Source: an uncultured Alphaproteobacteria bacterium (GTDB taxonomy: Bacteria; Pseudomonadota; Alphaproteobacteria; HIMB59; GCA-002718135). Taken from it: a DNA stretch of 64,000 bases. The stretch lies in the NCBI GenBank assembly GCA_902576125.1, contig CACGUF010000003.1:35311-99310 (forward strand), given 5' to 3'. How positions within the stretch are numbered: the stretch's first letter is position 1; each line of letters starts with the position of its first letter. Shown one piece after another: positions 1 through 16,826 of this stretch. The translations under genes were made by a program, and so were the position numbers. The notes beneath the pieces were generated by a model. The model worked only from the letters and a program-made list of their open reading frames with translations. It searched no databases and was not told the origin of the DNA.

Positions 1-652
1 CTTTTTCATTTTCTGTTTCACGCAAAACTTCTTTAATTGAAGAATAAATTAAATTAGGTCCATTTGAAATTTTTTCTGCTACTTCCCAAGCTCTTTTTAA
101 TAACTCATCTTTATTAACAATTTCATTAATTAAACCCCAATGCTTAGCTTCTTTTGTATCCATCCATCTTCCAGTCATTAAAAACTCTACTGCTACGTGA
201 TAAGGAATTCTTCTTCTTAATTTTATTGTAGCAGCATCTGCAACAACTCCTACATTAATTTCAGGTAATGCAAATGTTGCATGTTCAGAAGCTATTATAA
301 TATCTGCTGAAATCATTATTTCAAAACCGCCACCACAAGCAATACCATTTATAGCGGCAATAATAGGTTTGTTCATATTTGGTAATTCTTGCAAACCACC
401 AAATCCTCCTACACCATAATCAGCATCCGCTGCTTCTCCTTCATTAACAGCCTTAAGATCCCATCCTGCTGAAAAAAATTTTTCTCCACCACCAGTAATA
501 ATAGCTACTTTAAGATTAGGGTTATCTCTAAAATCAGAAAATATATTACCTAAAATTATACTTGTCTTAGCATCAATAGCATTAGCTTTTGGTCTATCAA
601 TTGTAACTTCAAGAATTGAGTCTATAATTTTAGTTTTGATTGGTTCGCTCAT
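1..652 (-). CDS. Enoyl-CoA hydratase/isomerase (crotonase) family protein, CaiD-like; N-terminal ~217 codons only, 3' end lies beyond the window edge
   Basis: Not in the ORF track because it runs off the window. My translation of the minus strand from ATG 652..650 reads MSEPIKTKIIDSILEVTIDRPKANAIDAKTS...ITGGGEKFFSAGWDLKAVNEGEAADADYG...INGIACGGGFE...MTGRWMDTKEAKHWGLINEIV. This is a crotonase fold, and the DRPKANAIDA and EKFFSAGWDLKA blocks closely resemble carnitinyl-CoA dehydratase CaiD as I remember it. Its start overlaps the upstream stop as ATGA at 649-652. Confidence 0.85.
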   Translation of the reverse strand, partial: MSEPIKTKIIDSILEVTIDRPKANAIDAKTSIILGNIFSDFRDNPNLKVAIITGGGEKFFSAGWDLKAVNEGEAADADYGVGGFGGLQELPNMNKPIIAAINGIACGGGFEIMISADIIIASEHATFALPEINVGVVADAATIKLRRRIPYHVAVEFLMTGRWMDTKEAKHWGLINEIVNKDELLKRAWEVAEKISNGPNLIYSSIKEVLRETENEK

Positions 653-2703
653 AATTCTTCAAAATAATGTATTAGTGCATCCACTGCAAACACACCTTTA
701 TTTTTTTTACAAACTATTAGTGGATTAATTTCTATTTCATGTAATTTATTGATATTTTTTTCAGCAAATTTAGATAATGAAAGTATTACTTTAATTAAAC
801 TATTGATATCCGCTCTATCTTGATTTCTGTAACCAAATAATATCTTACCTATTTTCATATTTTTTAATTCATTTTGAATATCTTTTTTTGTTAATGGTAA
901 TAATAAAGTTTTAGTCTCTCTAATTAGTTCTGTATAAATTCCTCCGGCGCCAATTACTATTACAGGACCAAATTCATCATCAATTTTAATTCCTACTAAA
1001 ATTTCTATTAGTGAATCTTTGACCATTTTCTCTAATAAAATTTGATTTTTAAATTTTTTTGTTTTGGACACTAATTCATTAATATTTTTAATATTAGTTA
1101 TGACACCATTATGTTCAGATTTGTGAAAAATTTGGTTTGAGTGAATTTTAGCAACTAATGGAAAACCAATTTTAGTACTATCTTTTTTTAATTTAATTTT
1201 ATTTGAAATTATTCCTTTAGGGGTTTTAATTCCAATTTGTTTTAGAAATTTTTTTGACTCAAATTCAGAGTAAGTTTTAATATTTTTATTATTATTCTTT
1301 ATTTTATAGTTTTTTACAGCAGATTCATTCTTCCAAATACTTCCAATTTCTATTGCTTTTTTAATTGTGAATAAAGCCTCTTTCATTCCTTGAAGAGGTG
1401 AAATTCCATTATTAATACATTTATCTCTAATATGTTTTGGCATTGTGTCTGATAATGAAGAGATGAGGCTTCCATTTTTATATTTTTTTGCAACTTTTAT
1501 AAATTTATCAACTATTGCATCCCACTCATCAGTATCGCATTTTTCCATATTTGGAAAATCAAGCATTAGGCTAATTGAACTAAAATTATTTTTAAAAAAT
1601 ATTTTGAATGTTTTTTCAATATTATCAGGATCATTCCAGTTATATGTTTGCATATCGAAAGGATTAGAAACTATTACACCTGGATGATTTACTTTTTTTA
1701 GAGCAGTTTTAATTTGTGGTTTAATTTTTCCAAATTTTAAATTTACAGTTTCTGCAGCATCTCCTAACATTGCCATATCTCCACCTGAGGGTCCCATAAT
1801 TGATATTTGATCATTTGAAATAACTCCATGGGTATGAAAATATTTTAGTAACTCTGTAAGTTCTGATAAAGTTTCACATCTGGCAACTCCCATTCTTTTA
1901 AATAAAGCATCGTAAATACTTTCTTTGCCACTTAATGAGCCTGTATGAGTTAAAATTGTCTCAGATGCAACTTTTGATCTGCCAACTTTGACAATAGCTA
2001 TTGGGATTTTTTTTTCTTTGGAGATTTTTAAAACTCTAATTAGTTTATTTATGCTTGTGAAACCTTCAGCGTAAATACCGATTGCCGTAACTCTTTTATC
2101 TTTCAGAGCATATTCAATTGTATCCTCAATGCTTATTTTAGCCTGATTGCCCAATGATATGATGTATCCTATTGGAAGAGATCTGTGATTAAAGCTAATC
2201 GTATTTCCAATAGTTCCACTTTGACAAATAATAGCTACACCTTTGTTTGTTTGACTACCCGCAACCTGATCTGACCAAACTGAAACTTTATCGAAATAAT
2301 TAATAAATCCATAACAATTAGGGCCTAAAAAAGGAGTTTTACCTGAATTAATTATTAACTTTTTAGTTTTTTCTTTGCCCTCTGCAGTATTTAATTCTGA
2401 AAATCTTGAAGCTAAACATACAGCGCCTCCAGCACCAATTTCAGAAATATCTTTCATTAATTGAATTGTTAAATCATTTGAAACTGCAATATAAACGCAA
2501 TCAGGAATTGATGGTAAGTCAGCTAAACTTTTATAATATTTCTTTTTTTTTGAACTGCTTCTTTTAGGATTAATGTGCCAAATTTCTCCTTTAAAACCAA
2601 TCTTTATATTTTCATCATAAACAAAGTCAGCCCAATATCCTCCAATTATTGCAAGTTTTTTTGGTCTAAATAATTTACTTAAGTTCACAAAATTAAGCCC
2701 CAA
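649..2703 (-). CDS. Acyl-CoA synthetase of the ADP/NDP-forming type (CoA-binding, succinyl-CoA-synthetase-like and C-terminal ATP-grasp domains)
   Basis: 684 aa. The N-terminus (KKLAIIGG, GPNCYGFIN, ICQSGT) is typical of CoA-binding/ligase-CoA domains. The C-terminal ~220 aa (ESKKFLKQIGIKTPKG...GFPLVAKI...VGIKIDDEFGPVIVIGAGGIYTE) looks like an ATP-grasp. The start is ambiguous: TTG at 2703 (11-nt overlap with the upstream gene) or GTG at 2688. Confidence 0.8.
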   Translation of the reverse strand: MGLNFVNLSKLFRPKKLAIIGGYWADFVYDENIKIGFKGEIWHINPKRSSSKKKKYYKSLADLPSIPDCVYIAVSNDLTIQLMKDISEIGAGGAVCLASRFSELNTAEGKEKTKKLIINSGKTPFLGPNCYGFINYFDKVSVWSDQVAGSQTNKGVAIICQSGTIGNTISFNHRSLPIGYIISLGNQAKISIEDTIEYALKDKRVTAIGIYAEGFTSINKLIRVLKISKEKKIPIAIVKVGRSKVASETILTHTGSLSGKESIYDALFKRMGVARCETLSELTELLKYFHTHGVISNDQISIMGPSGGDMAMLGDAAETVNLKFGKIKPQIKTALKKVNHPGVIVSNPFDMQTYNWNDPDNIEKTFKIFFKNNFSSISLMLDFPNMEKCDTDEWDAIVDKFIKVAKKYKNGSLISSLSDTMPKHIRDKCINNGISPLQGMKEALFTIKKAIEIGSIWKNESAVKNYKIKNNNKNIKTYSEFESKKFLKQIGIKTPKGIISNKIKLKKDSTKIGFPLVAKIHSNQIFHKSEHNGVITNIKNINELVSKTKKFKNQILLEKMVKDSLIEILVGIKIDDEFGPVIVIGAGGIYTELIRETKTLLLPLTKKDIQNELKNMKIGKILFGYRNQDRADINSLIKVILSLSKFAEKNINKLHEIEINPLIVCKKNKGVFAVDALIHYFEEL

Positions 2704-3844
2704 GAGGTCTTAACAAAGATCTTGAGATAATATGCCTTTGGATTTCACTTGTGCCTTCCCAAATCCGCTCTATTCTTGCATCACGCCAGATTCTTTCTAG
2801 TGGAATGTCAGACATCAAACCCATTCCTCCACATATTTGGATTGCTTCATCTGATACTTTGCCAAGCATTTCTGTGCAGAATAATTTTGTCATTGCTGCA
2901 TCTTGTGAGGAAAGAGTTTTTTGATCAATCTTCCATGCAGACTCAAGTAGCATTAGATTTGCAGCTTTAATATTTGTGGCCATATCTGCTAATTTAAAAG
3001 AAACACCTTGAAACTTTCCAATTACTTTTCCAAATTGTTTTCTATTAGCTGACCAGTCAAGTGCAATATCAAATGCTCTTTCTGCCCTTGATACAGAAGT
3101 TGCTGCTACTGTTAATCGTGTTGCTTCTAACCACACATTCATTAATTCAAAACCTTTATCCTTTTCACCTAAAATATTTTTTCCAGGTATTCTGCAGTCA
3201 TTAAAATTGATAACATTATTTACATATCCTCTATGAGAAACACAGTCGTAGCCCTTAGCTACTTCAACACCTTTTTGATGAAGATCAACTAGAAAACATG
3301 ACAATAAATTTCTTCCTTGTTCATCAGTTCCAGTTGAGGCAAATAAAACAACAAAGTCAGAAATATGAGCATTTGATATAAAATGTTTAGTTCCATTGAT
3401 TACCCAATCATCACCATCTTTTTTTGCATTTGTTTTCATTCCTCTAAGATCAGAACCAGCTTCAGGTTCAGTCATTGCAATACAATCTTTTCTTTCACCT
3501 GTGATAGCTGGCTTTAAGTATTCATCAATTAATTCACCCTCACAGGCCATTAAGATATTTTGTGGACGCCACGCAATTTCAGCTAAGGCAAGAGATGCGA
3601 AACCTAAATGTTTTTCAACTAAAGTTAAATCAAAAGCATTTAAGCCACCTCCACCATGCTCAACCGGCATATTGCAAGCATACAAACCAGCTTCAATGCT
3701 TTTTTTCTTAATTTCATTATATAATTCTTTAGGTAAATTATTTGTTTTTTCTAATAATTCTTCGTGTTGAAGCAATTCTGCTTTTACAAATGACTTAGTA
3801 GTATCAATTAAAAGATTCTGTTCTTCTGAAAGATTAAATTCCAT
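2693..3844 (-). CDS. Acyl-CoA dehydrogenase family flavoprotein
   Basis: 383 aa. ACAD hallmarks are present: CIAMTEPEAGSDL, WVINGTKHFISNA, QFGKVIGKFQGVSFKLADMA, and the C-terminal catalytic-Glu block RIWEGTSEIQRHII. ATG at 3844. Confidence 0.9.
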   Translation of the reverse strand: MEFNLSEEQNLLIDTTKSFVKAELLQHEELLEKTNNLPKELYNEIKKKSIEAGLYACNMPVEHGGGGLNAFDLTLVEKHLGFASLALAEIAWRPQNILMACEGELIDEYLKPAITGERKDCIAMTEPEAGSDLRGMKTNAKKDGDDWVINGTKHFISNAHISDFVVLFASTGTDEQGRNLLSCFLVDLHQKGVEVAKGYDCVSHRGYVNNVINFNDCRIPGKNILGEKDKGFELMNVWLEATRLTVAATSVSRAERAFDIALDWSANRKQFGKVIGKFQGVSFKLADMATNIKAANLMLLESAWKIDQKTLSSQDAAMTKLFCTEMLGKVSDEAIQICGGMGLMSDIPLERIWRDARIERIWEGTSEIQRHIISRSLLRPLGA

Positions 3845-3850
3845 TATTCT

Positions 3851-5053
3851 TTATGTAAACGCAGGTGTTTCATTTCTTCTTGGATTGTTAAAAAATTGCT
3901 TTTTAACCACTTTACATTCAGCCCAAATTTTTCTGTAATCCAGCTCTTCTGGATGATAAATTTCAGCATAAACATTTGATCCTAATTTATAATGTTCTTT
4001 GCTAACAAATCCAATCGCAATATTAGATTTAAGGACAGGGGACCACATTGCAGCTGTCACTATACCAATTTCTTTGGCTTGATTTTTTTTACTATTATCG
4101 TAGAGTACAGAACCAACGGCAGGCTTATCTCCTTCAATATCTAATCCCACGAGTTTTTTTTCAGGACCTTTTTCTTTGTGTCTAATTAATGCCTGTTTTC
4201 CAGTAAAATACTCTTTATCTAGATTTACTAACCAGCCCAAACCTAATTCATAGGGGTTTCTCATTCTATTTGGTCTTAAAGCTTGTTCCGCAGACATAAA
4301 ATCTACATTAGGTTGGATAAAACCAGCTTCAATTCTCACCATCTCAAGTGCATTCATCCCAGCTGCTAGTACTTTATAGTCTCTATTAAATTTAAATAAA
4401 CTATCCCATACATCAATGGCTTGAGAAGGGTCACACCATATTTCATAACCTAAGTCTCCAGAAAAACCTGTTCTGGAAATTGTAACATTATGATTTTCAA
4501 GATTATAATTATTAAAATGAAATGGTTTTAGGTTTTCTATATTTTCTACTTTTAATAAATTTAATATCTTACAAGATAACGGCCCTTGAAAAGCTAAAGC
4601 GGCAATTGATGGACTTATATCCTCAACACTTGCATTAAATCCCGTAGCTGTGTCAGAAAACCAATTTAGATTTCGTTCTGCACAAAAAATTCTAAAATGA
4701 TTTTCATTAAAGCAAAATATTGTTCCATCATCAATTACCATTCCATCTTCATTGCACCATATGCCATAGGCAACTTGGTTTGATTGAATATTAGTAATAT
4801 CTTTGGTGATTAATTTATTAATAAACTTTTTAGCATCCTCACCTTTGATATCATATTTATGCATAGGAGTAATATCAATTACCCCAGCTGTATTTCTCAT
4901 TGAAGTATACTCAAGTTCTGTTGATGAGTACTCTTTAGCAACTTTATAACCAGCCCATCTATACCAATCATTTGCATAACAATGCTCAGATGTTCTTTCG
5001 TGAAAAGGTGTCTCTAAGAGAGGTTTTTTGTATGATATTTTTGATGTATTCAT
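3851..5053 (-). CDS. GcvT-family (aminomethyltransferase-fold) folate-binding protein, stand-alone
   Basis: 400 aa. The N-terminus TPFHERTSEH..WYRWAGY...EYTSMRNTAGVIDITPMHKYDIKGEDA, together with RTGFSGDLGYEIW and a C-terminal barrel domain, matches the GCV_T/GCV_T_C architecture. Its ATG (5053..5051) shares one nucleotide with the upstream TAA (TAATG). Confidence 0.85.
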   Translation of the reverse strand: MNTSKISYKKPLLETPFHERTSEHCYANDWYRWAGYKVAKEYSSTELEYTSMRNTAGVIDITPMHKYDIKGEDAKKFINKLITKDITNIQSNQVAYGIWCNEDGMVIDDGTIFCFNENHFRIFCAERNLNWFSDTATGFNASVEDISPSIAALAFQGPLSCKILNLLKVENIENLKPFHFNNYNLENHNVTISRTGFSGDLGYEIWCDPSQAIDVWDSLFKFNRDYKVLAAGMNALEMVRIEAGFIQPNVDFMSAEQALRPNRMRNPYELGLGWLVNLDKEYFTGKQALIRHKEKGPEKKLVGLDIEGDKPAVGSVLYDNSKKNQAKEIGIVTAAMWSPVLKSNIAIGFVSKEHYKLGSNVYAEIYHPEELDYRKIWAECKVVKKQFFNNPRRNETPAFT

Positions 5054-6519
5054 TATTTTAAATCCTCTATTACTTTTTTTGCAGCATTAAGACCGTTGAT
5101 ACCTGTTAATCCCCCTCCAGGATGGGTTCCTGCACCACATAAATATAAACCATTTATAGGTGTAGAATATTGAGCTGATCCATAAAAAGGTCTCATCATT
5201 AATAATTGATCTATTTCTAAATCACCGTGATGCCAATGCCCTCCTGCTATATTAAACTTTTCTTCCATTTTATTGGGAGTGATGAGTTTTTGTTTTACTA
5301 TTTTCATATCTGGAATAAATTTACTTAAAACTGAAACACATCTTTCAATTATTTCATTTTCTTGATGATTAGTATTAATTAAATACGGAACATAATAAAC
5401 ATTAGCTGATAAGGTTTTTTGATTAACGTAAAACTCAAGGCATGGATTTTCAGAATATTTGTTATATTTATTAGCATTAAATGCATGTTCTATGTACTTA
5501 ATGCCAGGAGCATAAATAAACTTTCCGTTCATTTTTTTATCAATATTATTAATGTTAATTTCATTTTCTAAAGCTAATTCAAGCTTAGCAACATTTCCTT
5601 TATTTCTAAAATTTTTAGTTCTTCTAATAAAATCAGTATCTAGGATTTCTGCACCTAATAAATTTAAATAAGTTGTTTTAGGGTCAGCATTAGACATTAC
5701 ATATTTTGATTCAAAACCCTCACCATTAGTTAATTGAACGCCAGTGACAGAGTTATTTTGAGTTAATATTTTTTTAACTTCAGAGGATTTAATGATTTCA
5801 ACAGTATTTTTATTACAGCAATCTTCTAACTGATTAATATATTCTGCAACTTCTATTTTGTTTAAATTAAAAATATTGTCATTGATAGCTTGTTTATAAA
5901 GTAAAGTTAATATTGAGCCTGGAGATCTTGGACCTAGGTTTGTTCCTAAAACAGCTTCATGGGATAATAGACCCATTAGATTATTGTTATTTAAATTATC
6001 TTCTAAGTCATCTGCGATATTTAAACCAATTACTCTTAATAGTTCACGCATATTTTTTTTACCTAATTTTCTAATTTTCCATCCCATAGAAATTAATTGA
6101 AATAAGTCAGCTCTTTTACCTGATTTAACTCTTGGTGGTTTTTGAAACATAAATGCACCAAGAGTTTTTGAAAACAATTTGTAGTTATTGATAATTGACA
6201 AGAATTTCTTTTGATCATTTTCATCAGCATTTGTTTGAACAAAAGATAATTTGCCGTTTTTATCTGACAAAATAGTATGATTTTGATTATCCTCTAGTGA
6301 TATAATATTATTTGAATGATTAATATTATTAACATTAATCCCTAATTCTTTTTTAATGATTGGTGAGATACAGTTTAGTGATTCTGCATATTCCGCTAAT
6401 CCTCCAACGTTTTCGTTTTTTTCAATTACCAAAACTTTTTTTCCTTTTTTTGATAAGTATGAAGATGCAACTAATCCATTGTGACCTCCACCAATTATTA
6501 TGACATCAAATTTTTTCAT
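5053..6519 (-). CDS. NAD(P)/FAD-dependent oxidoreductase, amine-oxidase/phytoene-desaturase fold (COG1233-like), paralog 2
   Basis: 488 aa. It has an N-terminal dinucleotide-binding motif FDVIIIGGGHNGLVASSYL..VLVIEKNENVGG and a C-terminal LYLCGAGTHPGGGLTG motif. Both are shared with the adjacent paralog. ATGA overlap at 6516-6519. Confidence 0.8.
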   Translation of the reverse strand: MKKFDVIIIGGGHNGLVASSYLSKKGKKVLVIEKNENVGGLAEYAESLNCISPIIKKELGINVNNINHSNNIISLEDNQNHTILSDKNGKLSFVQTNADENDQKKFLSIINNYKLFSKTLGAFMFQKPPRVKSGKRADLFQLISMGWKIRKLGKKNMRELLRVIGLNIADDLEDNLNNNNLMGLLSHEAVLGTNLGPRSPGSILTLLYKQAINDNIFNLNKIEVAEYINQLEDCCNKNTVEIIKSSEVKKILTQNNSVTGVQLTNGEGFESKYVMSNADPKTTYLNLLGAEILDTDFIRRTKNFRNKGNVAKLELALENEININNIDKKMNGKFIYAPGIKYIEHAFNANKYNKYSENPCLEFYVNQKTLSANVYYVPYLINTNHQENEIIERCVSVLSKFIPDMKIVKQKLITPNKMEEKFNIAGGHWHHGDLEIDQLLMMRPFYGSAQYSTPINGLYLCGAGTHPGGGLTGINGLNAAKKVIEDLK

Positions 6520-8144
6520 ATGTAATGTGTTGATATTTTCATCTTTAAATCTTTTAATATTTCTCTTGCTGCATTAGCTCCAGGTGCACCCATAACACCT
6601 CCGCCAGGATGCGTGCTTGATCCACACATATATAGATTTTTGATTGGTGTCTTATATTGAGCATAACCAGGTACTGGACGATTAAACATTAATTGGTCCA
6701 TGGTTAGTTCACCTTGGAATATATTGCCTTCAGTTAAACCAACCTCAGATTCTATTTCTTTAGGAGTTCTAATTTCTGCATGATTGATAATATCATTAAA
6801 GTTTGTCGAGTAATTGCCAATTCTATTCATTACATGTTTACCAAATTCAAGACGTTTCTCCTCAGTCCAACCTCCATTAGCTAAATTGTAGGGTACATAT
6901 TGAATAAATACAGACATATAATGTTTTCCTTGTGGTGCCATAGTTGGATCATTGATGCTTGGAATGCACATATCAACATAAGGAAATTGTGACCACTTAC
7001 CATCCTTCCAATCATCGTAAGCTCCTTCCATCTCTTCTATGTTTTGCGTTATATGCAAATCACCAGTGCCAGCAGGATCACCAACTGGAATACTCTTCCA
7101 AATAGGAAGATCATCAAGAGCAATATTTAATTTTCCTGATGAGCCTCTAATTTTAAAATTTTTGACAGCTTTATAAAAATCACTAGGTAATTCTTTTTCT
7201 TCTACAACTTTTAAAAAAGTTCTTTTTACATCAAGGTTAGAAACTATTTTATCTGCATAAATTTCATCACCATTCTCAAGAACAAGTCCATAACTTTTGT
7301 TATTTTTGATAAGAATCTGACTTACTGGTGAACCTGCTTTTATTTCACCATTGTTTGATTTTAAAGATGACGCCATAGCTTTTGTAATTGAGCCCATTCC
7401 TCCTCTGGAATACCCCCATGCTCCAACAGTCCCATCTACTTCTCCCATGTAATGATGTAATAATACATAAGCTGATCCAGGGGAATAAGGCCCAAGCGCT
7501 GTACCTATTATTGCAGATCCTGCTAAATGTACTTTTACTATATCTGATTCAAAATATTCTTCTAAATAATCTCTTACGCTCATTGTCCAAAATCTTATGG
7601 TGTCGTAAATTTCTTTTTCACCTAAACCACCAAGCTCATCTTTAGCTGCAAAGTATTTTGCAAATTCAAAAAGACCCATAATATCTTTTGGTTTAAAAGA
7701 AGTAGGGTCAGGAGGAGTCATTTTTAAAAGAGGTTTGATAATTTTGCATTGCCTCATTACATCTTTGCCAAACCTATCATAGGCTTCAGCATCTTTTTTT
7801 GAAAATTGAGCGATAGATCTGTATGTTAAATCATGATCTTGATAATGTGCATAAAATCTACCATCATTAAGCATACTCGCACTACCTTCATAAGGTATAA
7901 TTTGAAGCCCATGTTTTGATAATTCTAAATCTCTAAATATCTCAGGTCTTAATAAGCTGCAAACATATGAGCAATTAGAATAAGTCCAACCTGGATGCAA
8001 TTCTCTGCTAACAGCTGCGCCTCCAACATATTCATGTCGTTCCACAACAATGACTTTGAGACCCGCCTTAGCCAAATAACAGGCTGTGGTTAATCCATTA
8101 TGACCACCACCAATTATAGCAACATCATATTTAGTTTTGTTCAT
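6516..8144 (-). CDS. NAD(P)/FAD-dependent oxidoreductase, amine-oxidase/phytoene-desaturase fold (COG1233 / PYROXD2-like), paralog 1
   Basis: 542 aa. Motifs: YDVAIIGGGHNGLTTACYLAKAGLKVIVVERHEYVGG, GAWGYSRGGMGSITKA, LYMCGSSTHPGGGVMG. This is the first gene of the minus-strand operon. ATG at 8144. Confidence 0.8.
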   Translation of the reverse strand: MNKTKYDVAIIGGGHNGLTTACYLAKAGLKVIVVERHEYVGGAAVSRELHPGWTYSNCSYVCSLLRPEIFRDLELSKHGLQIIPYEGSASMLNDGRFYAHYQDHDLTYRSIAQFSKKDAEAYDRFGKDVMRQCKIIKPLLKMTPPDPTSFKPKDIMGLFEFAKYFAAKDELGGLGEKEIYDTIRFWTMSVRDYLEEYFESDIVKVHLAGSAIIGTALGPYSPGSAYVLLHHYMGEVDGTVGAWGYSRGGMGSITKAMASSLKSNNGEIKAGSPVSQILIKNNKSYGLVLENGDEIYADKIVSNLDVKRTFLKVVEEKELPSDFYKAVKNFKIRGSSGKLNIALDDLPIWKSIPVGDPAGTGDLHITQNIEEMEGAYDDWKDGKWSQFPYVDMCIPSINDPTMAPQGKHYMSVFIQYVPYNLANGGWTEEKRLEFGKHVMNRIGNYSTNFNDIINHAEIRTPKEIESEVGLTEGNIFQGELTMDQLMFNRPVPGYAQYKTPIKNLYMCGSSTHPGGGVMGAPGANAAREILKDLKMKISTHYI

Positions 8145-8152
8145 TGTATTTT

Positions 8153-8179
8153 CTTATATTTCTTTGAATGAGCATTCAA
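8153..8179 (-). promoter_or_regulatory. Candidate promoter of the flavoprotein operon: -35 TTGAAT (8179..8174), 15-nt spacer, -10 TATAAG (8158..8153), 8 nt before ATG 8144
   Basis: Hexamers were read directly on the minus strand. The spacer is short (15 nt), and AT-rich DNA makes -10-like hexamers common, so confidence is low. Confidence 0.3.
8164..8179. promoter_or_regulatory. 16-bp palindrome TTGAAT-gagc-ATTCAA; candidate TetR-family operator
   Basis: This is a perfect inverted repeat (it also reads as 7-bp arms TTGAATG/CATTCAA with a 2-nt spacer). It lies in the 76-91 bp divergent region between the flavoprotein operon (start 8144) and tetR (start 8221 or 8236). The same 6+4+6 core recurs at 19226..19241. 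Confidence 0.5.
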
Positions 8180-8235
8180 CCAAATTTCTTGTAAAATCAA
8201 GCTTTTTATGAAAAAATGTAGTGAATTTATTAAAT

Positions 8236-8859
8236 ATGAAACAAAGAAATCTTAGATCAGAAAATAAGAAAAATAGTAATTTAAAATTAATTTCTTCAAC
8301 AATTAAAAATTTATCAAAAAAAGGAATAAATGAATTAACTATGCAAGATGTATCGCAGGGAGCAGGCCTTTCCCAAGGTATAGTCAATTTTCATTTTAAG
8401 AGTAAGGAACTTTTATTAATAGAAACATTAAAGTATATTTCTAACGAGTATCTAGATTCATTTCAAAGAAGTATTGCGAAAAAAGGTAATGATCCAAGAA
8501 AAAAAATCATTGGAATTGTAGAAAATGATTTTAGTAAAAAAATTTGCACTAGAGAAAAAATTGCAGTGTGGTTTACTTTTTTTAGTGAAATTAAATATAA
8601 ACCCGCTTATCATCAAATTTGTAAAGAACGAGATATGTATTACCAATCTTTAACTGAAAATATATTTGATGAACTTATAAAAAAAGAAAAAGTGAAATTA
8701 TCTAAAAAAAATATTTCTAGAGGATTTCAAGCTTTGATTATGGGATTATGGTTAGATCAACTTGAAGATCCAGATACTTTTAACAGGATACAAGCAAAGA
8801 AAATATGTTTTGAGTTTATTAAATCTAATTTCCCCAAACAATTTAAGGGTATGTTTTAA
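8236..8859 (+). CDS. TetR/AcrR-family transcriptional regulator
   Basis: The N-terminal HTH is INELTMQDVSQGAGLSQGIVNFHFKSKELLL, followed by a helical ligand-binding domain. The ORF track starts at GTG 8221. I prefer ATG 8236 (MKQRNLRSE...). Confidence 0.85.
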   Translation: MKQRNLRSENKKNSNLKLISSTIKNLSKKGINELTMQDVSQGAGLSQGIVNFHFKSKELLLIETLKYISNEYLDSFQRSIAKKGNDPRKKIIGIVENDFSKKICTREKIAVWFTFFSEIKYKPAYHQICKERDMYYQSLTENIFDELIKKEKVKLSKKNISRGFQALIMGLWLDQLEDPDTFNRIQAKKICFEFIKSNFPKQFKGMF

Positions 8860-8861
8860 CA

Positions 8862-10040
8862 ATGTATAGTGGCATGACACCAAAAGCTTTGGAATGGCAA
8901 TTAAAGATAAAAAAATTTGTTAATGATGAATTAATTCCTTGGGAGGTGCATGCAGAAAAAAATGAAGGTGAGTTACCCAAGGAAATTGAAAAAAAACATC
9001 GGGAGATTGCTATTTCACTAGGTTTGCCGGGTATGGGTATTTCAAAAGAAAGCGGAGGCTTAGGATTAAATATGTTTGAACAGATGATAGTTTGGGAACA
9101 ATTAGGCCGAGTTACAAATGCATTATGCTGGTGTTTTTCAGAAGCTCAGGATTGGATGGAAAATAATTTTACTGATTATCAAAAAGAAAATTATTTTAAA
9201 CCACTTTTAAACGGTACTAAAAAAGAATGTTATGCGATTACTGAAAAAGGCGCTGGTTCAGATGTGGAAGGCTCAATTGAAACAACAGCAGAAAAAAAGG
9301 GAGATCAATATATTATTAATGGCGAAAAATGGTATGTTACAAGTGCAAATCTAGCTGATTTTTTCTTTTTACAGGCAAAAATTAAATCTGGCTCAAATAA
9401 GGGTAAGCATTCACTATTTATAATTGATAAGGATGAGAAAGGAATTGAGTTAATAGATAGCCCTAAGTTTAGTCATACATATGCTCATCATCATTCTATT
9501 TATAGGTTTGATAATGTTTCAATTTCAGATAAAAACATAATTGGGAATGAAGGTATAGGGATGGATTATACACATTCCTGGTTTAGGCATGAAAGACTAG
9601 GTATAGCTGCAAGATGCTGCGGGGCTGCTCAAAGATTAATTGATGAAGCAACAATTTTTGCAAAAGAAAGAGAATCTTTTGGTGATAAAATTTCAAACTA
9701 TCAAGCTATACAATTCATGTTAGCAGATAGTGTAAATGAATTAGCCTCAACCAGATTAATGCTTTATGAGGTTTGTAAAGCTCATGATGCAAAACAAGAC
9801 GTTAAAATTTTACATGGAAAATGTTCTATGATTAAATTACTTGCATCTGAAATGGCTAATAGAATTGCTGATCGTGCAGTGCAGATTTTTGGTGGAAGAG
9901 GATATATGAGAGAAAATGTTGCAGAACGTTATTATAGAGAATTAAGAGTGGACCGTATTTGGGAAGGAACAAGTGAAATTCATAGAATTATTATTGCAAA
10001 TTCTCTTTATAAAAGAGGTTTGAAATCTTTAATTGAATAA
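8862..10040 (+). CDS. Acyl-CoA dehydrogenase family flavoprotein (second copy)
   Basis: 392 aa. Motifs: CYAITEKGAGSDV, YIINGEKWYVTSA, SFGDKISNYQAIQFMLADS, RIWEGTSEIHRIII. It starts 2 nt after the tetR stop, so it is probably co-transcribed. Confidence 0.9.
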   Translation: MYSGMTPKALEWQLKIKKFVNDELIPWEVHAEKNEGELPKEIEKKHREIAISLGLPGMGISKESGGLGLNMFEQMIVWEQLGRVTNALCWCFSEAQDWMENNFTDYQKENYFKPLLNGTKKECYAITEKGAGSDVEGSIETTAEKKGDQYIINGEKWYVTSANLADFFFLQAKIKSGSNKGKHSLFIIDKDEKGIELIDSPKFSHTYAHHHSIYRFDNVSISDKNIIGNEGIGMDYTHSWFRHERLGIAARCCGAAQRLIDEATIFAKERESFGDKISNYQAIQFMLADSVNELASTRLMLYEVCKAHDAKQDVKILHGKCSMIKLLASEMANRIADRAVQIFGGRGYMRENVAERYYRELRVDRIWEGTSEIHRIIIANSLYKRGLKSLIE

Positions 10041-10061
10041 ATAAGGAGCTGAAAAAAAATT

Positions 10062-10946
10062 ATGATAAGTTTTTGGAGAAAAATTTATGCTAAAAATGAT
10101 AATGTTAAAGCCTATACTTTATTATCACCAGCTTTAATTTTAATTATTTTAGCTATGGTCGTACCAATGGTACTAATGTTGAGCTTTAGTATGTTTACTC
10201 AAGTTAACATGATGGAGATAGACTATACTTTTACCTTTCAAAGATATATTGATTTCTTTCAAAAAAAATTGCTTGTCACACTTCTCATAAAGTCTATTAA
10301 AATATCATTTCTTGTAACTTTAATTACTCTGATCACAGCATACCCAGTTTGTTATTACATTGCTTTTTATGTTAAAAAAAACAAAATGTTGTGGCTTGTT
10401 TTGCTTACTTTGCCTTTTTGGACATCATATTTATTAAGAGTATTTTCTTGGAAGATTATTCTTGGAACAAAAGGAGTGATAAACTCTTCATTGATCAACG
10501 CTGGAATTCTTAACGAACCTCTGACATTTCTTATGTATTCAGAAACCGCAGTTGTTATTACCCTTACTCATGCATGGGCTGCATTTGCATTACTACCTTT
10601 ATATGTTTCTTTAGAAAAAATTGACTTTTCTTTTATTGAAGCTGGAAGAGATCTTGGATTATCTCGATTTGAAGTGTTTTGGAAAATTACATTTCCATTA
10701 TCGTTACCTGGTGTAATAGGTGCAATATTAATCATATTCATTCCAACAGTAGGTGATTATGTAACTCCAGCCTTACTTGGGGGAACTGATGGTCGTATGC
10801 TTTCGAATATGATCCAAGCTTACTTTGGAAAAATAAACAATATTCCTCTCGGTGCAGCTTCAGCTACAATTATGTTAACTACTGTTGTAATCATAACAAT
10901 CATTGTATCGAATGTAACAAAAAAACTTACACAAAGGTTAACTTAA
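10062..10946 (+). CDS. ABC transporter permease, PotB-like (spermidine/putrescine-type importer)
   Basis: 294 aa with about 6 hydrophobic spans and the EAA-type loop IEAGRDLGLSRFEVFWKITFPLSLPG. An AAGGAG lies upstream of the start. Confidence 0.85.
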   Translation: MISFWRKIYAKNDNVKAYTLLSPALILIILAMVVPMVLMLSFSMFTQVNMMEIDYTFTFQRYIDFFQKKLLVTLLIKSIKISFLVTLITLITAYPVCYYIAFYVKKNKMLWLVLLTLPFWTSYLLRVFSWKIILGTKGVINSSLINAGILNEPLTFLMYSETAVVITLTHAWAAFALLPLYVSLEKIDFSFIEAGRDLGLSRFEVFWKITFPLSLPGVIGAILIIFIPTVGDYVTPALLGGTDGRMLSNMIQAYFGKINNIPLGAASATIMLTTVVIITIIVSNVTKKLTQRLT

Positions 10947-10948
10947 AA

Positions 10949-11758
10949 ATGAACGAAAAAAATAATACATTATTAATTTACACCCTTCTTTATTTTGGTT
11001 TTCTGTATGTGCCAGTTTTATTCCTACCTATATTTAGTTTTAACGATGCAAATTATATGTCATTCCCTCTTGCTGGATTTACAACGGAGCACTATGAGGA
11101 AATGTGGTCAAAAAGAAATTTACATAAGGCTCTATGGGCGAGTATAAAAGTAGGAGTTGTTGCGAGTGTCATTAGTACAACAATTGCACTTTTTGCCGCT
11201 AAGGCATTTGCTCGATATAAATTTAGAGGGGAAAAGATTTCTTATGGAGGTATAATGATGCCATTTTTGATACCAGAAATTATTTTGGCTGTAGCTATAC
11301 TTATAATTTGGATCAATCTTGGATTTAAATTGGGGCTCGTACCAGTCACAATTGGTCACACTTTATTTTGTACACCTTTTGCAATGTTAATACTTATAGC
11401 CCGTATTGAAGGCTTTGATTTTTCACTTGAAGAAGCCTCTAGAGATTTAGGAGAGAATGCGTGGGGAACATTTTTTAGAGTGTCATTTCCATTATATTTG
11501 CCTGGGATAGTCGCAGCTCTTCTTCTCAGTTTCATAATTTCTTTTGATGAATTTATTCTTGCATTTTTTTTAACTGGGAGTGACGCAACATTACCTATGT
11601 ATATGTGGGGCCAAATGAGATTTGTTCAGAAGTTACCTCATGTACTGGCATTAGGAGCAGTAATTATTGTTTTTACTACTTTTATTGTTTTATTAGCATT
11701 CTGGTTAAGAAATGTTGGACAAGGTAAAGGAAAGAAAGATATAGCTGTGAAATTATAA
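10949..11758 (+). CDS. ABC transporter permease, PotC-like
   Basis: 269 aa with the EAA loop EEASRDLGENAWGTFFRVSFPLYLPG. It begins 2 nt after the preceding gene. Confidence 0.85.
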   Translation: MNEKNNTLLIYTLLYFGFLYVPVLFLPIFSFNDANYMSFPLAGFTTEHYEEMWSKRNLHKALWASIKVGVVASVISTTIALFAAKAFARYKFRGEKISYGGIMMPFLIPEIILAVAILIIWINLGFKLGLVPVTIGHTLFCTPFAMLILIARIEGFDFSLEEASRDLGENAWGTFFRVSFPLYLPGIVAALLLSFIISFDEFILAFFLTGSDATLPMYMWGQMRFVQKLPHVLALGAVIIVFTTFIVLLAFWLRNVGQGKGKKDIAVKL

Positions 11759-11764
11759 AAAATT

Positions 11765-12847
11765 ATGAATAATTCATTTATACAGATCAATAATATTTCA
11801 AAACACTTTAAAGAAGTGAAAGCAGTTGATGATGTTTCATTTGAGATTAAAGAAGGTGAATTTTTTTCTCTTTTAGGACCCTCTGGATGTGGCAAGACAA
11901 CATTGTTGAGATTATTGGCAGGGTTTGAATACCCTACATATGGGAATTTATTAATTGATGGCACAGATATTACTGCTTTACCTCCAGACAAAAGACCTAC
12001 AAATATGGTTTTTCAAAACTATGCGATTTTTCCTCATCTTAATGTTGAAAAAAATATTCAATTTGGACTTAGAAAACTTGACTTAAGTAATGATGAGATA
12101 GGTAATAGAGTTAAAGATGTTCTTACATTAGTCAAGCTAGAGGGCTATGAAGAAAGATTTAGCAATCAGCTATCAGGTGGTCAAAGGCAACGTGTTGCTC
12201 TTGCAAGAGCTTTAGTCAGGCAACCAAAAGTGCTATTATTAGATGAACCTCTTGGTGCTTTAGATAAAAAATTAAGAGATGAAATGCAATTAGAATTAAG
12301 AACTCTTCAAAAAAATATTGGAATTACTTTTGTATTTGTCACTCACGATCAACAAGAAGCTATAAGTATGTCAGACAGAGTTGCAGTTATGAACGATGGA
12401 AAAATTCAACAGCTATCAGCACCCAATGAACTTTATAAGAATCCAAAAAATATATTTGTAAGTGATTTTATTGGTGAAACGAATTTTCTTAAAGCGGAAA
12501 CTAAATCGAGTGATGGAGAATTCATCAATGTTTCAATTGAAGAATTGGGAGAATTTAAAATTAAAAATAATTTAAATATCGCAGCAAATTCTTCGAATGT
12601 TGTTTGTAGTGTTCGCCCAGAATCTATGATGATTTCAAAAGTGAAATCTGACTGGGATATTTGTCTTGATGCTAAGATTAGACAGACTTCATATTTAGGA
12701 GAAATGACTAGATTTTATGTTGAGGTGCAAGGAATTGATAAGACTATCACTGTTTCTTCGCAACATTTTGACAATCAATCTTTTGAAAATAACGAGTGCT
12801 TTATAAGTATTAGCTTAGAAGATATTTCTTTATTGAATAAAAAATAG
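11765..12847 (+). CDS. ABC transporter ATP-binding protein, PotA-like
   Basis: Walker A GPSGCGKTT, signature LSGGQRQRVALARAL, Walker B VLLLDEPLGALD, H-loop FVTHDQ, plus a C-terminal regulatory (TOBE-like) extension. Confidence 0.9.
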   Translation: MNNSFIQINNISKHFKEVKAVDDVSFEIKEGEFFSLLGPSGCGKTTLLRLLAGFEYPTYGNLLIDGTDITALPPDKRPTNMVFQNYAIFPHLNVEKNIQFGLRKLDLSNDEIGNRVKDVLTLVKLEGYEERFSNQLSGGQRQRVALARALVRQPKVLLLDEPLGALDKKLRDEMQLELRTLQKNIGITFVFVTHDQQEAISMSDRVAVMNDGKIQQLSAPNELYKNPKNIFVSDFIGETNFLKAETKSSDGEFINVSIEELGEFKIKNNLNIAANSSNVVCSVRPESMMISKVKSDWDICLDAKIRQTSYLGEMTRFYVEVQGIDKTITVSSQHFDNQSFENNECFISISLEDISLLNKK

Positions 12848-12896: not shown

Positions 12897-13985
12897 TCAA
12901 CCGCCAGCAACCATTTCAGCCCATTGAGCTTCCATATAGTCAGTTACCTCATCTGAAGGCATCACAGAGAACATTCCATTTGAAAGGTGTTCTGCAGGAT
13001 TAGCCGCTACTCCACGTTCCGCTAATTCATCAGCAGTAATTGTGCTAAAGCCTTTCTTGTTTGAATGACCATAACCCCACTCACTTAATAAATAAGCTGA
13101 AGTTTCAGCACTAGTAGCTCCATTAATCATTGCATATGCTTTATCAAGGTCTGCACCTTTAACAATGGCAAGCCCACAAGCCCACGTCATTGTACCATTA
13201 GCAGGTTGCATCATTTTTGCACCAGCATTCCATGCAATTTCGTTCCATCCAAGAGCTACGTCTATTTCTTCGTTACCTAGCGCCTCTACCATTGAGGAAG
13301 TGTCTCCGAAGAATGCACGTATTTGTCCGTTATCTCTCATTTCACGGAACTTATTGATACCTTTATCAATAGCAGCTTTAGTTAATTGATCTTTTTCTCT
13401 GATATCAATTCCAAGATGATGCATCATTAAAAATAATGAGTCAGCAGCTGAGTCTAATATACCAACTTTACCTTTTACTCTTGGGTCTTCCATTAGATCA
13501 AAACTTTCATTATCAGCGTTCATCCATGGAATTCGATCAGCCATGTAAAATAAAGTAGTATCACCCCAATCGATAGGTGCAAAATAATTCTGACCATCAA
13601 CAATACCACTTGGTAGGTCTCTTACTTCAGGAAACATATCATCCCAGTGATCTATTCGAGAAGTGTCCAATGGTTCAAGTACTCCAGCTCTAACCCAACG
13701 AGCTATTTCACCTTGGCATGGCCAAGCTAAATCGACTTCAAAACCAGCTTTTAATTTTTGTAAACCTTCTTCAGCATCACCGAATGTTGAATATTCAGGT
13801 GACCCATGTTCTTCTACATATGTTCCAAATAGTCCATCATCATCATATCCGCCCCATAGAAAAACACTTCCAGGCTCATCAGCAAAAACCTTTGATGTGG
13901 TAAATAATCCGGTTATAAAAACCATCAATATTGCCACCCCTAAAGTTTTTACTAAAAAATTTTTAGTTTCATAGTATTTAGGCAT
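12897..13985 (-). CDS. Periplasmic substrate-binding protein, PotD/PotF-like (ABC importer, family 1)
   Basis: The N-terminus has a signal peptide (MPKYYETKNFLVKTLGVAILMVFITGLFTTSKVFA). The mature protein is acidic, rich in Trp and Gly, and poor in Lys. The ORF track starts at TTG 13997. I prefer ATG 13985, which is preceded by GGGGGT 4 nt upstream. It is convergent with potBCA. Confidence 0.8.
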   Translation of the reverse strand: MPKYYETKNFLVKTLGVAILMVFITGLFTTSKVFADEPGSVFLWGGYDDDGLFGTYVEEHGSPEYSTFGDAEEGLQKLKAGFEVDLAWPCQGEIARWVRAGVLEPLDTSRIDHWDDMFPEVRDLPSGIVDGQNYFAPIDWGDTTLFYMADRIPWMNADNESFDLMEDPRVKGKVGILDSAADSLFLMMHHLGIDIREKDQLTKAAIDKGINKFREMRDNGQIRAFFGDTSSMVEALGNEEIDVALGWNEIAWNAGAKMMQPANGTMTWACGLAIVKGADLDKAYAMINGATSAETSAYLLSEWGYGHSNKKGFSTITADELAERGVAANPAEHLSNGMFSVMPSDEVTDYMEAQWAEMVAGG

Positions 13986-14118
13986 TTTTACCCCCAATAA
14001 ATTTTAATTAATTGCTACATGAACAATAATTTGAGAAAATTTCAATAAAAAATAACAATTTTTATAAATTAGGTTTTAATTTATTTTTTTGAAACCATGG
14101 CTCTATTTGCTCTAATTG

Positions 14119-14320: not shown

Positions 14321-14331
14321 ATTTAATTAAA

Positions 14332-14360
14332 TAGACATTCAATTTTTTTTTACATATAAT
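14332..14360 (+). promoter_or_regulatory. Candidate sigma-70-type promoter: -35 TAGACA (14332-37), 17-nt spacer, -10 TATAAT (14355-60); ATG at 14366
   Basis: The -10 is consensus, the -35 has one mismatch and the spacing is ideal. Only 5 nt separate the -10 from the start codon, which implies a leaderless or near-leaderless mRNA. The -35 overlaps a one-mismatch copy of the palindrome (TTAAAT-agac-ATTCAA, 14327-14342). Confidence 0.45.
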
Positions 14361-14365
14361 TTTTT

Positions 14366-15751
14366 ATGACTTTTAAAAATAGCAAAGTTTTAATTGCTAC
14401 AGCTGATGAATTTAATTCTTTTAAAGAAAAAAATCCAGAAATAAAATACATAGATGCTATTTTAAGTGATTTATCAGGAGTTATTAGAGGCAAAAGATTA
14501 CCTATTAATGATGCTGAAAAACTATTTAAGTCAGGAATTCAATTTTGTTATTCAACTTTTTTATTAGATGTTACGGGTTATTGTCCTGATGCAGCAGGAA
14601 GAGGTTTTACTGATGGAGATCCAGATGCAACTTATTTTCCTGTAGCTGGAACTTTAAAAAAAATGCCATGGCATAAAGATTCTTTAGGACAAGTGTTAAT
14701 CACAATTCAAGATGATTCACGATATAGCTCCATAATAGACCCAAGAAATGTACTAGCTAGAGTTTTAGATAGAACTGAAGATTTAAATTTACAATTTAAA
14801 GTTGCTTTTGAATTAGAATTTTATCTTTTTAAAAAAAGAAAAAATATTTCTGAAAAGCCAGAACCAGCAATATCAAACGAAACTAACAAACAAAGTGAAG
14901 GAACTCAAGTTTATGGAATGAGAGAATTAGATGAATTCTATGATTTTTTGGAAGATGTTAATGAATTTTGTAAAATACAAAATATTCCTGCATCAACTGC
15001 TTCATCTGAATTTGCCCCAGGTCAATTTGAAATAAATTTAAATCATACCAATGATATTCTGAAAGCAGCAGATGACTCAGCATTATTAAGAAGAGTAATA
15101 AAAGAAACTGCTATTAAGCATGGTTATGAAGCAAGCTTTATTTCTAAACCATTTATTGAGCAAACTGGGAGTGGTATGCATGTTCATATAAGTTTGTTTA
15201 ATGAAAAAAATCAAAATATTTTTTCCGGACCTAAAGAAGAAGGAAGTGAACAATTACATTATGCAATTGGTGGTTTACAAAAAACATTATATGATAATTT
15301 TTTAATTTTTGCTTCTAATGTAAATTCTTATAGGCGTTTTGAGCCTGATCAATTTGTTCCTGTAAACAATTCGTGGGGTCCTAATAATAGATCTGTAGCT
15401 TTTAGAATACCAAGAAGTGATGAAAAATCCAAAAGAATTGAGCATAGAGTAGCAGGAGCTGAAGCTAATTCTTATTTAGTTCTTTCTGCTATTTTATCAG
15501 GAATTCATTACGGTCTTATTAATAAAATATCTCCTACAAAATTTAGAATTGATAATGCTTGCACTGACCCTGATCCTGAAATGCCCAAATCTATCGACAA
15601 GGCTATTCAATTATTTGAAAACTCAAAATTTTGTATTGATTATTATTCAAAAGAATATGTGACAATGTTTTCTGATTTAAAAAGAAAAGAAATCGAATCT
15701 TTTCGTACTGAAATTTCCGATATTGAATATAAGTGGTATCTTAATCTTTAA
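14366..15751 (+). CDS. Glutamine synthetase-family ligase (gamma-glutamyl-amine/polyamine synthetase-like, PuuA/GlnA3-type), copy 1
   Basis: 461 aa. GS catalytic-domain signatures are present: GSGMHVHISL, NSYRRFEP, RIEHRVAGAEANSYLV. The N-terminal beta-grasp domain is also present. Confidence 0.85.
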   Translation: MTFKNSKVLIATADEFNSFKEKNPEIKYIDAILSDLSGVIRGKRLPINDAEKLFKSGIQFCYSTFLLDVTGYCPDAAGRGFTDGDPDATYFPVAGTLKKMPWHKDSLGQVLITIQDDSRYSSIIDPRNVLARVLDRTEDLNLQFKVAFELEFYLFKKRKNISEKPEPAISNETNKQSEGTQVYGMRELDEFYDFLEDVNEFCKIQNIPASTASSEFAPGQFEINLNHTNDILKAADDSALLRRVIKETAIKHGYEASFISKPFIEQTGSGMHVHISLFNEKNQNIFSGPKEEGSEQLHYAIGGLQKTLYDNFLIFASNVNSYRRFEPDQFVPVNNSWGPNNRSVAFRIPRSDEKSKRIEHRVAGAEANSYLVLSAILSGIHYGLINKISPTKFRIDNACTDPDPEMPKSIDKAIQLFENSKFCIDYYSKEYVTMFSDLKRKEIESFRTEISDIEYKWYLNL

Positions 15752-16824: not shown

Positions 16825-16826
16825 TG

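Follow-up and report, generated by a model that had tools for sequence, protein, structure and literature searches.

The stepwise route from gamma-butyrobetaine to carnitine in S. meliloti has reportedly been characterized by Bazire et al. in 2019. In another study, S. meliloti BcoAB served as a gamma-butyrobetaine:CoA ligase that, supplied with ATP and CoA, gave gamma-butyrobetainyl-CoA (PMC8364193). On R. etli plasmid p42c, which we reached by tblastn of plasmid records, the corresponding genes run in the order GlxA regulator, BKACE protein, carnitine 3-dehydrogenase, acyl-CoA dehydrogenase (ACAD), acetate-CoA ligase family protein (684 amino acids), carnitinyl-CoA dehydratase, and ABC transporter. 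The S. meliloti record holds the same cluster, in which an ACD-type gene occupies the 2.2 kb that separate the ACAD gene from caiD; because this is the sole gene between BcoC and BcoD, BcoA/B is taken to be an ACD-type enzyme. Here, we describe a 64,000-nucleotide stretch (the window) of contig CACGUF010000003.1, from an uncultured alphaproteobacterium. Its positions 1 to 3844 likely encode a SAR11-lineage form of the S. meliloti bcoC-bcoA/B-bcoD cassette, which would convert gamma-butyrobetaine to L-carnitinyl-CoA. The assignment draws on homology, gene order, co-location with carnitine genes, catalytic residues, and operator-like boxes.

The window has a G+C content of ∼30%, and its nearest relatives are uncultured Pelagibacteraceae or marine Alphaproteobacteria. 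A tightly packed string of six minus-strand genes encodes, in transcription order, CrtI-like FAD protein A (CrtI-A; 6516 to 8144; Pfam Amino_oxidase and DAO; first gene of the operon), CrtI-like FAD protein B (CrtI-B; 5053 to 6519; Amino_oxidase and NAD_binding_8), a GcvT-family folate-binding protein (3851 to 5053; GCV_T, 7e-56), an ACAD of 383 amino acids (ACAD1; 2693 to 3844), a fused ACD-type (NDP-forming) acyl-CoA synthetase (649 to 2688 from a GTG start or 649 to 2703 from a TTG start), and a CaiD-type crotonase (1 to 652). The last three are the putative BcoC-like gamma-butyrobetainyl-CoA dehydrogenase, BcoA/B-like ligase, and BcoD-like crotonobetainyl-CoA hydratase/carnitinyl-CoA dehydratase. 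An earlier note on this DNA had placed these genes and their junctions, and open reading frames and direct reading of the sequence confirmed all of them. The crotonase and synthetase genes share a stop/start ATGA overlap at 649 to 652. The ACAD1 stop at 2693 to 2695 overlaps the TTG start of the synthetase by 11 nucleotides or lies 4 nucleotides from the GTG start, and a 6-nucleotide gap (AGAATA, 3845 to 3850) separates the GcvT gene from the ATG of ACAD1. The three cassette genes are translationally coupled to one another and to the GcvT and two CrtI-like genes. The synthetase would have 684 residues from TTG or 679 from GTG; the GTG start at 2688 is more likely, because metagenomic homologues are 678 to 681 residues long and begin MNLSKLF. 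Exact-sequence look-ups of the window synthetase and ACAD returned no match, and close homologues stood in for them. A promoter and terminator scan of this AT-rich DNA was uninformative (49 sites versus 49 expected), while Rfam and tRNA scans retrieved one tRNA-Leu and nothing else.

The crotonase is present as the N-terminal 217 of ∼258 codons, with its C terminus beyond the window edge. The fragment matches Pfam ECH_1 at 3e-53, and its top NCBIfam model is crotonobetainyl-CoA hydratase CaiD (NF002936), at 271 bits versus 176 for the runner-up; the lead over the next model is 85 to 95 bits across the fragment and the full-length orthologue at a related locus (L003). Identity is 52% to E. coli CaiD, 62% to the CaiD of the R. 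etli cluster, and 44 to 62% to the CaiD partners of cassette synthetases generally. Both catalytic Glu residues (in GGGFE and ALPE) and the acidic loop AGWDLKA..EGEAxDAD are kept with E. coli CaiD. The motif blocks that the earlier note described as CaiD-like are real: DRPKANAIDAKTS is identical in the two proteins, and GEKFFSAGWDLKA..EGEA.DAD(Y/F)G matches E. coli CaiD at every specified position save the Y/F. By these identities and scores, the protein is CaiD-type rather than a generic fatty-acid hydratase. Conservation of the CaiD acidic loop points to a cassette substrate whose trimethylammonium group is retained.

The likeness to E. coli caiTABCDE is centered on this hydratase and on the crotonobetainyl-, gamma-butyrobetainyl-, and carnitinyl-CoA intermediates. 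In contrast, ACAD1 is only 30% identical to CaiA, and the direction expected here is oxidative, from butyrobetaine to carnitine, whereas that of E. coli is reductive. No CaiB, CaiC (AMP-forming ligase), CaiT, or FixABCX was seen in window positions 1 to 27542 or in the related loci. ACAD1 carries three ACAD domains (Pfam, 1e-47, 5e-24, and 2e-10) and the catalytic Glu in WEGTSEI. It is 54 to 59% identical to the synthetase-adjacent ACADs of R. etli, S. meliloti, Kiloniella, and others, while the best ACAD in the PDB scores 219 bits.

The synthetase comprises ATP-grasp_5 (9e-43), Succ_CoA_lig (2e-32), and CoA_binding_2 (1e-06) domains. Its best full-length solved relative is the ADP-forming 4-hydroxybutyrate-CoA ligase Nmar_0206 of Nitrosopumilus (8wzu; 231 bits, collinear over residues 4 to 671), which also acts on a C4 omega-substituted acid. 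Unlike the synthetase described here, Nmar_0206 serves an archaeal carbon-fixation cycle, has no ACAD or CaiD partners, and uses a neutral substrate. Identity to cassette synthetases is 34 to 37% (R. etli, 34%, 451 bits), and the catalytic histidines H248 and H522 of the window protein are present in 82/82 aligned cassette synthetases. In every lineage, the synthetase is the fastest-evolving member of the cassette (40 to 55% identity versus 58 to 75% for the ACAD in pairs outside SAR11). A paralogue might have replaced the synthetase in situ; we rejected this idea, because in each lineage no other cassette member diverges as much. Synthetase protein clusters at 90% identity contain up to 308 metagenomic sequences each.

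The same three families in the same ACAD-synthetase-CaiD order make up the rhizobial clusters. Compared with R. etli p42c, proteins of the window or of L003 are 62% (CaiD), 55% (ACAD), 34% (synthetase), 54% (BKACE), and 40% (carnitine dehydrogenase) identical. We surveyed one genome per species with the synthetase alignment and considered the best 80 loci. An ACAD lies within 3 kb in 74 of these, a CaiD within 3 kb in 76, and both in 71, which share the order found in R. etli and S. meliloti; contig ends account for three of the nine exceptions. BKACE or carnitine dehydrogenase genes occur at 61 of the 80. Carriers include Rhizobium, Mesorhizobium, Kiloniella, Paracoccaceae (including HIMB11), Rhodoferax, Thioglobus, Novosphingobium, and Streptomyces. 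Two SAR11-like genomes are among the 80 loci, a count that says nothing of other SAR11 genomes. The earlier note's proposal that this locus uses a different activation enzyme thus does not hold, since the rhizobial route has an ACD-type synthetase in the same position. Its suggestion of a possibly undescribed locus applies to the flavoprotein module and to the setting in SAR11 but not to the CoA route itself, which is already known.

Close relatives extend the view leftward beyond the window edge. Loci L001 to L003 and the single-cell genome AG-447-C07 (L016) have synthetases 93 to 96% identical to that of the window and 83 to 87% DNA identity to window positions 1 to 12700; L016 matches the crotonase fragment at 100% identity and the crotonase, synthetase, and ACAD1 on that side at 95 to 100%. 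In these relatives, as seen in those at 86 to 87% DNA identity, the crotonase gene is followed by a gap of ∼56 nucleotides bearing an operator-like palindrome and then, on the same strand, by genes for a class-III aminotransferase, an MFS transporter, a GNAT protein, and an HD-domain protein. Beyond these lie a 4HBT thioesterase gene on the opposite strand, a BKACE gene, and a gene of the 3-hydroxyacyl-CoA-dehydrogenase (3HCDH) family. The earlier note expected the operon to continue past position 1. Same-strand genes do follow in the relatives, but the palindrome-bearing gap means that a separately regulated unit may begin there.

Thioesterase and BKACE genes lie 4 to 6 kb downstream in 8/8 related SAR11-type contigs, and carnitine dehydrogenase is present in six of the eight (L001 to L003, L013, L014, and L016). 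The arrangement recurs where the synthetase is 60 to 68% identical (L012 to L015). The thioesterase matches the corresponding domain of the fused carnitine 3-dehydrogenase model. BKACE and carnitine dehydrogenase orthologues thus lie near the cassette in close relatives of the window, and a Pot-annotated ABC transporter adjoins the S. meliloti cluster as well. The SAR11-type locus differs from the rhizobial clusters in several respects. Its regulator is a BetI-type TetR rather than a GlxA-family protein; its thioesterase is a separate gene rather than fused to the dehydrogenase; and its carnitine genes lie downstream, after the aminotransferase-MFS-GNAT-HD block, rather than directly upstream. 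Its cassette is co-transcribed with two CrtI-like flavoproteins and GcvT, a second ACAD is present, and its synthetase is much more divergent.

Further observations concern these flanking genes. In L012 and L015, which carry the 68% synthetase allele, an MDR-type (CurA-like) reductase gene stands directly after BKACE (16964 to 18868). The HD-domain protein, of 185 to 189 amino acids (L003, 15878 to 16447), weakly resembles PhnZ/TmpB-type oxygenases. Its homologues (48 to 53% identical to the L003 copy) lie between BKACE and carnitine dehydrogenase in Mesorhizobium-type clusters (L057, L070, L084, L090, and L094 near 7000 to 7100; L092 at ∼4500), and it appears to be an unrecognized conserved member of carnitine clusters. 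In the S. meliloti Ak57 record (L095, CP090106.1), the carnitine cluster is immediately preceded by a "spermidine/putrescine" ABC transporter. The synthetase region of that record (7786 to 10048) has no listed coding sequence, matches in two pieces, and may be frameshifted or a pseudogene in Ak57. The record is titled plasmid pSymB, at 3.72 Mb, and is probably a mislabelled chromosome.

The substrate, nucleotide product, and direction of flux proposed here are predictions, as is any role for the flavoprotein/GcvT genes. The synthetase would ligate gamma-butyrobetaine (4-trimethylammoniobutyrate) to CoA, using ATP via a phosphohistidine and presumably releasing ADP and phosphate. ACAD1 would desaturate gamma-butyrobetainyl-CoA to crotonobetainyl-CoA, to which the CaiD-type hydratase would add water to give L-carnitinyl-CoA. 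These first three steps are encoded in the window, and the genes for the next three lie just past its edge in close relatives. The 4HBT thioesterase would free L-carnitine, carnitine dehydrogenase would produce 3-dehydrocarnitine, and BKACE would combine the latter with acetyl-CoA to yield acetoacetate and betainyl-CoA, whose hydrolysis would give glycine betaine. A BHMT-type homocysteine S-methyltransferase gene in or beside the cluster (L013, 6223 to 7221; L014, 21643 to 22058) fits glycine betaine as the pathway product.

Several observations weigh against the butyrobetaine assignment. The CaiD model has a cutoff of 500 bits, which is missed by both the 217-residue fragment (271 bits) and the full-length L003 orthologue (291 bits). 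The best NCBIfam model of the 3HCDH protein is L-carnitine dehydrogenase, but its 355 bits lie under the cutoff of 414, and L012 and L015 have no carnitine dehydrogenase gene. The class-III aminotransferase recurs by the cassette (SAR11 loci and L083), and the known route assigns it no role. The synthetase is 32 to 38% identical to any cassette synthetase outside its lineage, a level compatible with orthology because it is the fastest-evolving member in all lineages. SAR11-type lineages hold three deeply divergent synthetase alleles (95, 68, and 60% identity), while neighboring proteins are 82 to 98% identical; given this divergence, the specificity of the synthetase could have shifted. BcoA/B itself presumably releases ADP, as judged from family membership. 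Finally, Roseobacter ACD enzymes termed DddX-like cleave dimethylsulfoniopropionate (DMSP) in vitro and in vivo (PMC13543886), a point we return to below.

Upstream of the cassette, the flavoprotein/GcvT genes form a module of their own. The top NCBIfam matches of the GcvT-family protein are the C-terminal domain of trimethylamine N-oxide demethylase (251 bits) and GcvT (228 bits), and its PDB matches are aminomethyltransferase and Tdm. The analogy to the Dmd pathway drawn in the earlier note fails: the DmdA model scores 166 bits against a cutoff of 410, below the GcvT and Tdm models, and there is no DmdB-type ligase, the sole ligase being of the ACD type. CrtI-A scores 284 bits with the CrtO model (cutoff, 1000). 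Searches of solved structures offered no hint of what the CrtI-like proteins do; the best hit was phytoene desaturase 4dgk, at 69 bits for CrtI-A and 39 bits for CrtI-B. CrtI-B is always found with CrtI-A and GcvT, and CrtI-A homologues are very abundant in marine metagenomes. A literature search on phytoene-type flavoproteins joined with aminomethyltransferase found nothing useful. Our most economical guess is that the CrtI-like/GcvT set is a folate-linked N-methyl dehydrogenase whose substrate is a tertiary or secondary amine.

The module also occurs apart from the cassette. L006 has genes for TetR, Pot, CrtI-A, CrtI-B, GcvT, aminotransferase, DAO, and GNAT proteins without it; L007 and L008 hold a similar module set together with a GbcA-like Rieske oxygenase, again without the cassette in L007; and in L009 and L010, two reverse-strand genes lie between GcvT and the cassette. 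Because of these loci, the cassette is best read as an insertion, in this lineage, between the GcvT and aminotransferase genes of an older TetR-controlled module, which consists of a Pot-type importer, two CrtI-like flavoproteins, GcvT, class-III aminotransferase, GNAT, and MFS genes. The module and cassette also adjoin in an unrelated gammaproteobacterial metagenome-assembled genome (L017), and the cassette of L083 is joined to a TetR-Pot-aminotransferase set.

The tetR gene (8221 to 8859, plus strand; Pfam TetR_N and TetR_C_6) is divergent from the operon. BetI models are its best matches (106 and 102 bits), under their cutoffs. The intergenic region between tetR and crtI-A contains a perfect palindrome, TTGAATGAGCATTCAA (8164 to 8179), that is kept in relatives and is a candidate TetR operator. 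The palindrome TTGAATGnnCATTCAA upstream of crtI-A is common to ten loci: L001, L003, L006, L009, L010, L012, L014, L015, and L016 (no mismatches), and L007 (one mismatch). A copy lies between the crotonase and aminotransferase genes in 8/8 SAR11-type loci covering that junction (near 12835 in L001, L003, and L016; 12840 in L012 and L015; 12870 in L014; 3172 in L013; and 21311 in L009). In the window, a second copy with one mismatch, TTGAATGCTTATTCAA (19226 to 19241), is flanked by genes for a DAO-family oxidase and a GbcA-like Rieske oxygenase, and another with two mismatches (14327 to 14342) lies upstream of a glutamine-synthetase-like gene. The palindrome is a likely TetR operator and would define a regulon. 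The flavoprotein/GcvT module and the cassette are probably co-regulated, because the palindrome is common to the crtI-A, aminotransferase, and DAO/Rieske sites.

This probable co-regulation bears on the reading first proposed for the locus, namely, that one N-methylated omega-amino acid other than gamma-butyrobetaine (such as 4-dimethylaminobutyrate or delta-valerobetaine) passes first through the flavoprotein/GcvT demethylase and the CoA cassette in series, with the aminotransferase removing nitrogen last. The coupling of all six genes in one operon speaks for such a series. So do the palindrome at the operon, the aminotransferase unit of relatives, and the Rieske/DAO genes, which suggests one regulon; the module beside the cassette in L017; the aminotransferase, TetR, and Pot genes joined to the cassette in L083; and the fact that the island has two hypervariable genes, those for the synthetase and CrtI-B. 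Nevertheless, the two parts are separable. Not only does the module occur without the cassette (L006 and L007), but the cassette occurs without the CrtI/GcvT module in 77 of the best 80 loci, and the parts are split by two reverse-strand genes in L009 and L010. Moreover, a flavin amine dehydrogenase cannot oxidize a quaternary nitrogen, and the conserved CaiD acidic loop suggests that the trimethylammonium group is kept. We therefore regard demethylation and CoA chemistry on one substrate, as the earlier note had proposed, as unlikely. The note's broader expectation of cationic acyl-CoA chemistry with a quaternary amine as substrate fits the CaiD-type crotonase, the BetI-type TetR, and the downstream carnitine genes. 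A generic set for short-chain fatty-acid activation and beta-oxidation, unrelated to cationic substrates, is by comparison hardly credible. The best solved relatives of ACAD1 are indeed short-chain ACADs, and those of the synthetase are hydroxy-acid CoA ligases. However, the crotonase shares 52% identity with E. coli CaiD, the CaiD model leads every generic hydratase model by nearly 100 bits, ACAD1 scores 451 bits with a cassette ACAD versus 219 bits with the best generic one, and linkage to carnitine genes is constant.

The remaining alternative concerns the synthetase, which may instead be chiefly lytic in the manner of DddX-like enzymes. It would then join DMSP or another onium-propionate such as beta-alanine betaine to CoA, with loss of dimethyl sulfide or trimethylamine giving acryloyl-CoA, to be hydrated by the crotonase or reduced by the neighboring MDR-type reductase. 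SAR11 is a major DMSP consumer, and in L003, L013, and L014, the gene after that for carnitine dehydrogenase is of the NADPH enone-reductase type. The Psychrobacter enzyme DddX (PMC8163506) and the DddX-like enzymes (PMC13543886) share with the window protein the ACD superfamily, the alpha-then-beta domain order, and the use of ATP, CoA, and Mg with a cationic carboxylate. By mutation, DddX-like activity depends on His251, Thr351, Trp354, and Trp392 (PMC13543886). The equivalent residues are present in the window protein: H248, T348, W351, and W389 share these alignment columns, which are conserved in 82, 82, 81, and 75 of 82 cassette synthetases, respectively. The Paracoccaceae synthetases of L035, L050, and L065 (10001 to 12050 in each) even carry H251, T351, W354, and W392 at the numbers published for the Neptunicoccus DddX-like enzyme. 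DddX itself (7cm9) is a detectable homologue at 170 bits, more distant than 8wzu. In the HMMER alignment, H248 aligns with DddX His292, but the column of the catalytic Glu432 is Thr386 and that of Trp391 is Gln347, adjoining Thr348. Thus, among the features that mark DddX (His292, Trp391, Glu432, and >30% identity), the His is kept and the other two columns differ; by this comparison, the synthetase is not a DddX. The invariant Glu388, which adjoins Trp389, is a possible base. At ∼37% identity to the Paracoccaceae cassette synthetases, the window protein would also fall outside the >60% clade of PMC13543886. Its neighbors are carnitine genes rather than ddd or acu genes; its partner enzymes are specifically CaiD-like and BcoC-like and are linked to carnitine dehydrogenase and BKACE, which play no part in DMSP breakdown; and the ACAD would be left without a substrate. 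The reductase is CurA-like (328 bits) rather than AcuI-like (45 bits). The reported Km of 1.43 mM and kcat of 0.42 s-1 suggest a side activity, and the DddX-like paper makes no mention of gene context or butyrobetaine (PMC13543886). A chiefly lytic synthetase accordingly appears quite improbable.

From the shared residues, the DddX-like enzymes are probably orthologues of BcoA/B, in which case a butyrobetaine ligase may cleave DMSP only as a side reaction, given the reported Km of 1.43 mM. A broader and more speculative reading, which we offer as doubtful, would unite the BcoA/B family and the DddX-like DMSP lyases in one family. The SAR11 enzyme would then be a broad onium-carboxylate CoA ligase with alleles tuned to gamma-butyrobetaine, DMSP, and other betaines. 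The TetR regulon (GbcA-like Rieske oxygenase, DAO-family oxidase, two CrtI-like flavoproteins with GcvT, and aminotransferase) would strip a trimethylammonium compound to the primary amine, salvaging methyl groups as methylene-tetrahydrofolate, and the CrtI-like/GcvT set would be a new heteromeric class of folate-linked N-methyl dehydrogenase.

Across window positions 1 to 12847, the locus is an allele mosaic when compared with L001, L003, L012, L014, L015, and L016. The crotonase, synthetase, and ACAD1 are of the L003/L016 type (95 to 100%), while GcvT, CrtI-B, and TetR are of the L012/L015 type (87 to 95%, versus 60 to 76% to L016), with a breakpoint near the GcvT/ACAD1 junction (∼3845). This pattern suggests recombination. 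CrtI-B alleles (87, 60, and 48%) and synthetase alleles (95, 68, and 60%) diverge far more than the neighboring ACAD1 and CrtI-A (85 to 98%), possibly reflecting diversifying selection on two substrate-facing proteins.

To the right of tetR, the second ACAD gene (ACAD2; 8862 to 10040, plus strand) lies downstream of the BetI-type regulator, as the earlier note had stated. ACAD2 has Pfam ACAD domains and WEGTSEI, is 31% identical to the R. etli cassette ACAD, and is found in the SAR11-type loci L001, L003, L009, L012, and L014 to L016. L006 has no ACAD at this position, and L007 has an unrelated one (25 to 27% identical). Genes for PotB/PotC/PotA-type ABC permeases and ATPase follow (10062 to 12847, plus strand; open reading frames, with BPD_transp_1 and ABC_tran in orthologues), and then one for a PotF/PotD-family solute-binding protein (12897 to 13997, minus strand; SBP_bac_8, 2e-19). 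This gene has a G+C fraction of 0.385, versus ∼0.30 around it. The binding-protein family is narrow (43 proteins at E ≤ 1e-30), with ∼1,000 metagenomic sequences in each 90%-identity cluster. We make no claim that it corresponds to the osmolyte binder SAR11_1336 (Clifton et al. 2024); the 43-member family includes no named Pelagibacter ubique protein. To the right of this gene, positions 14366 to 23238 form a nitrogen-compound island. It encodes two glutamine-synthetase-like proteins of the gamma-glutamylpolyamine synthetase type, a CN hydrolase of the N-carbamoylputrescine-amidase type, a PAD_porph protein of the agmatine-deiminase type, two DAO-family oxidases (one at 17870 to 19207, minus strand), and the GbcA-like Rieske oxygenase (19261 to 20493, plus strand), which scores 330 bits with the glycine betaine monooxygenase GbcA model (cutoff, 670).

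The CoA route described here is known and widespread; less ordinary is its embedding in a TetR regulon with an uncharacterized flavoprotein/GcvT module. As far as the searchable literature shows, the cassette has not previously been noted in SAR11. Our literature search on gamma-butyrobetaine and carnitine routes in this group retrieved solely the butyrobetaine island of Arctic SAR11 isolates, which, unlike the CoA-based route predicted here, is BBOX-based (PMC12421898). Metagenomic (Tara) counts of "dddX-like" genes made with loose HMM cutoffs (PMC13543886) probably take in synthetases of butyrobetaine cassettes and may therefore overstate DMSP-lyase potential. Ocean plankton contain measurable pools of gamma-butyrobetaine and carnitine, and their turnover has been called an unexplored pathway (PMC9321204). 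If our assignment is correct, a very abundant, uncultured SAR11-type lineage would possess a complete route from gamma-butyrobetaine to glycine betaine. The route would give these glycine-dependent cells an extra source of glycine betaine and hence of methyl groups and glycine.

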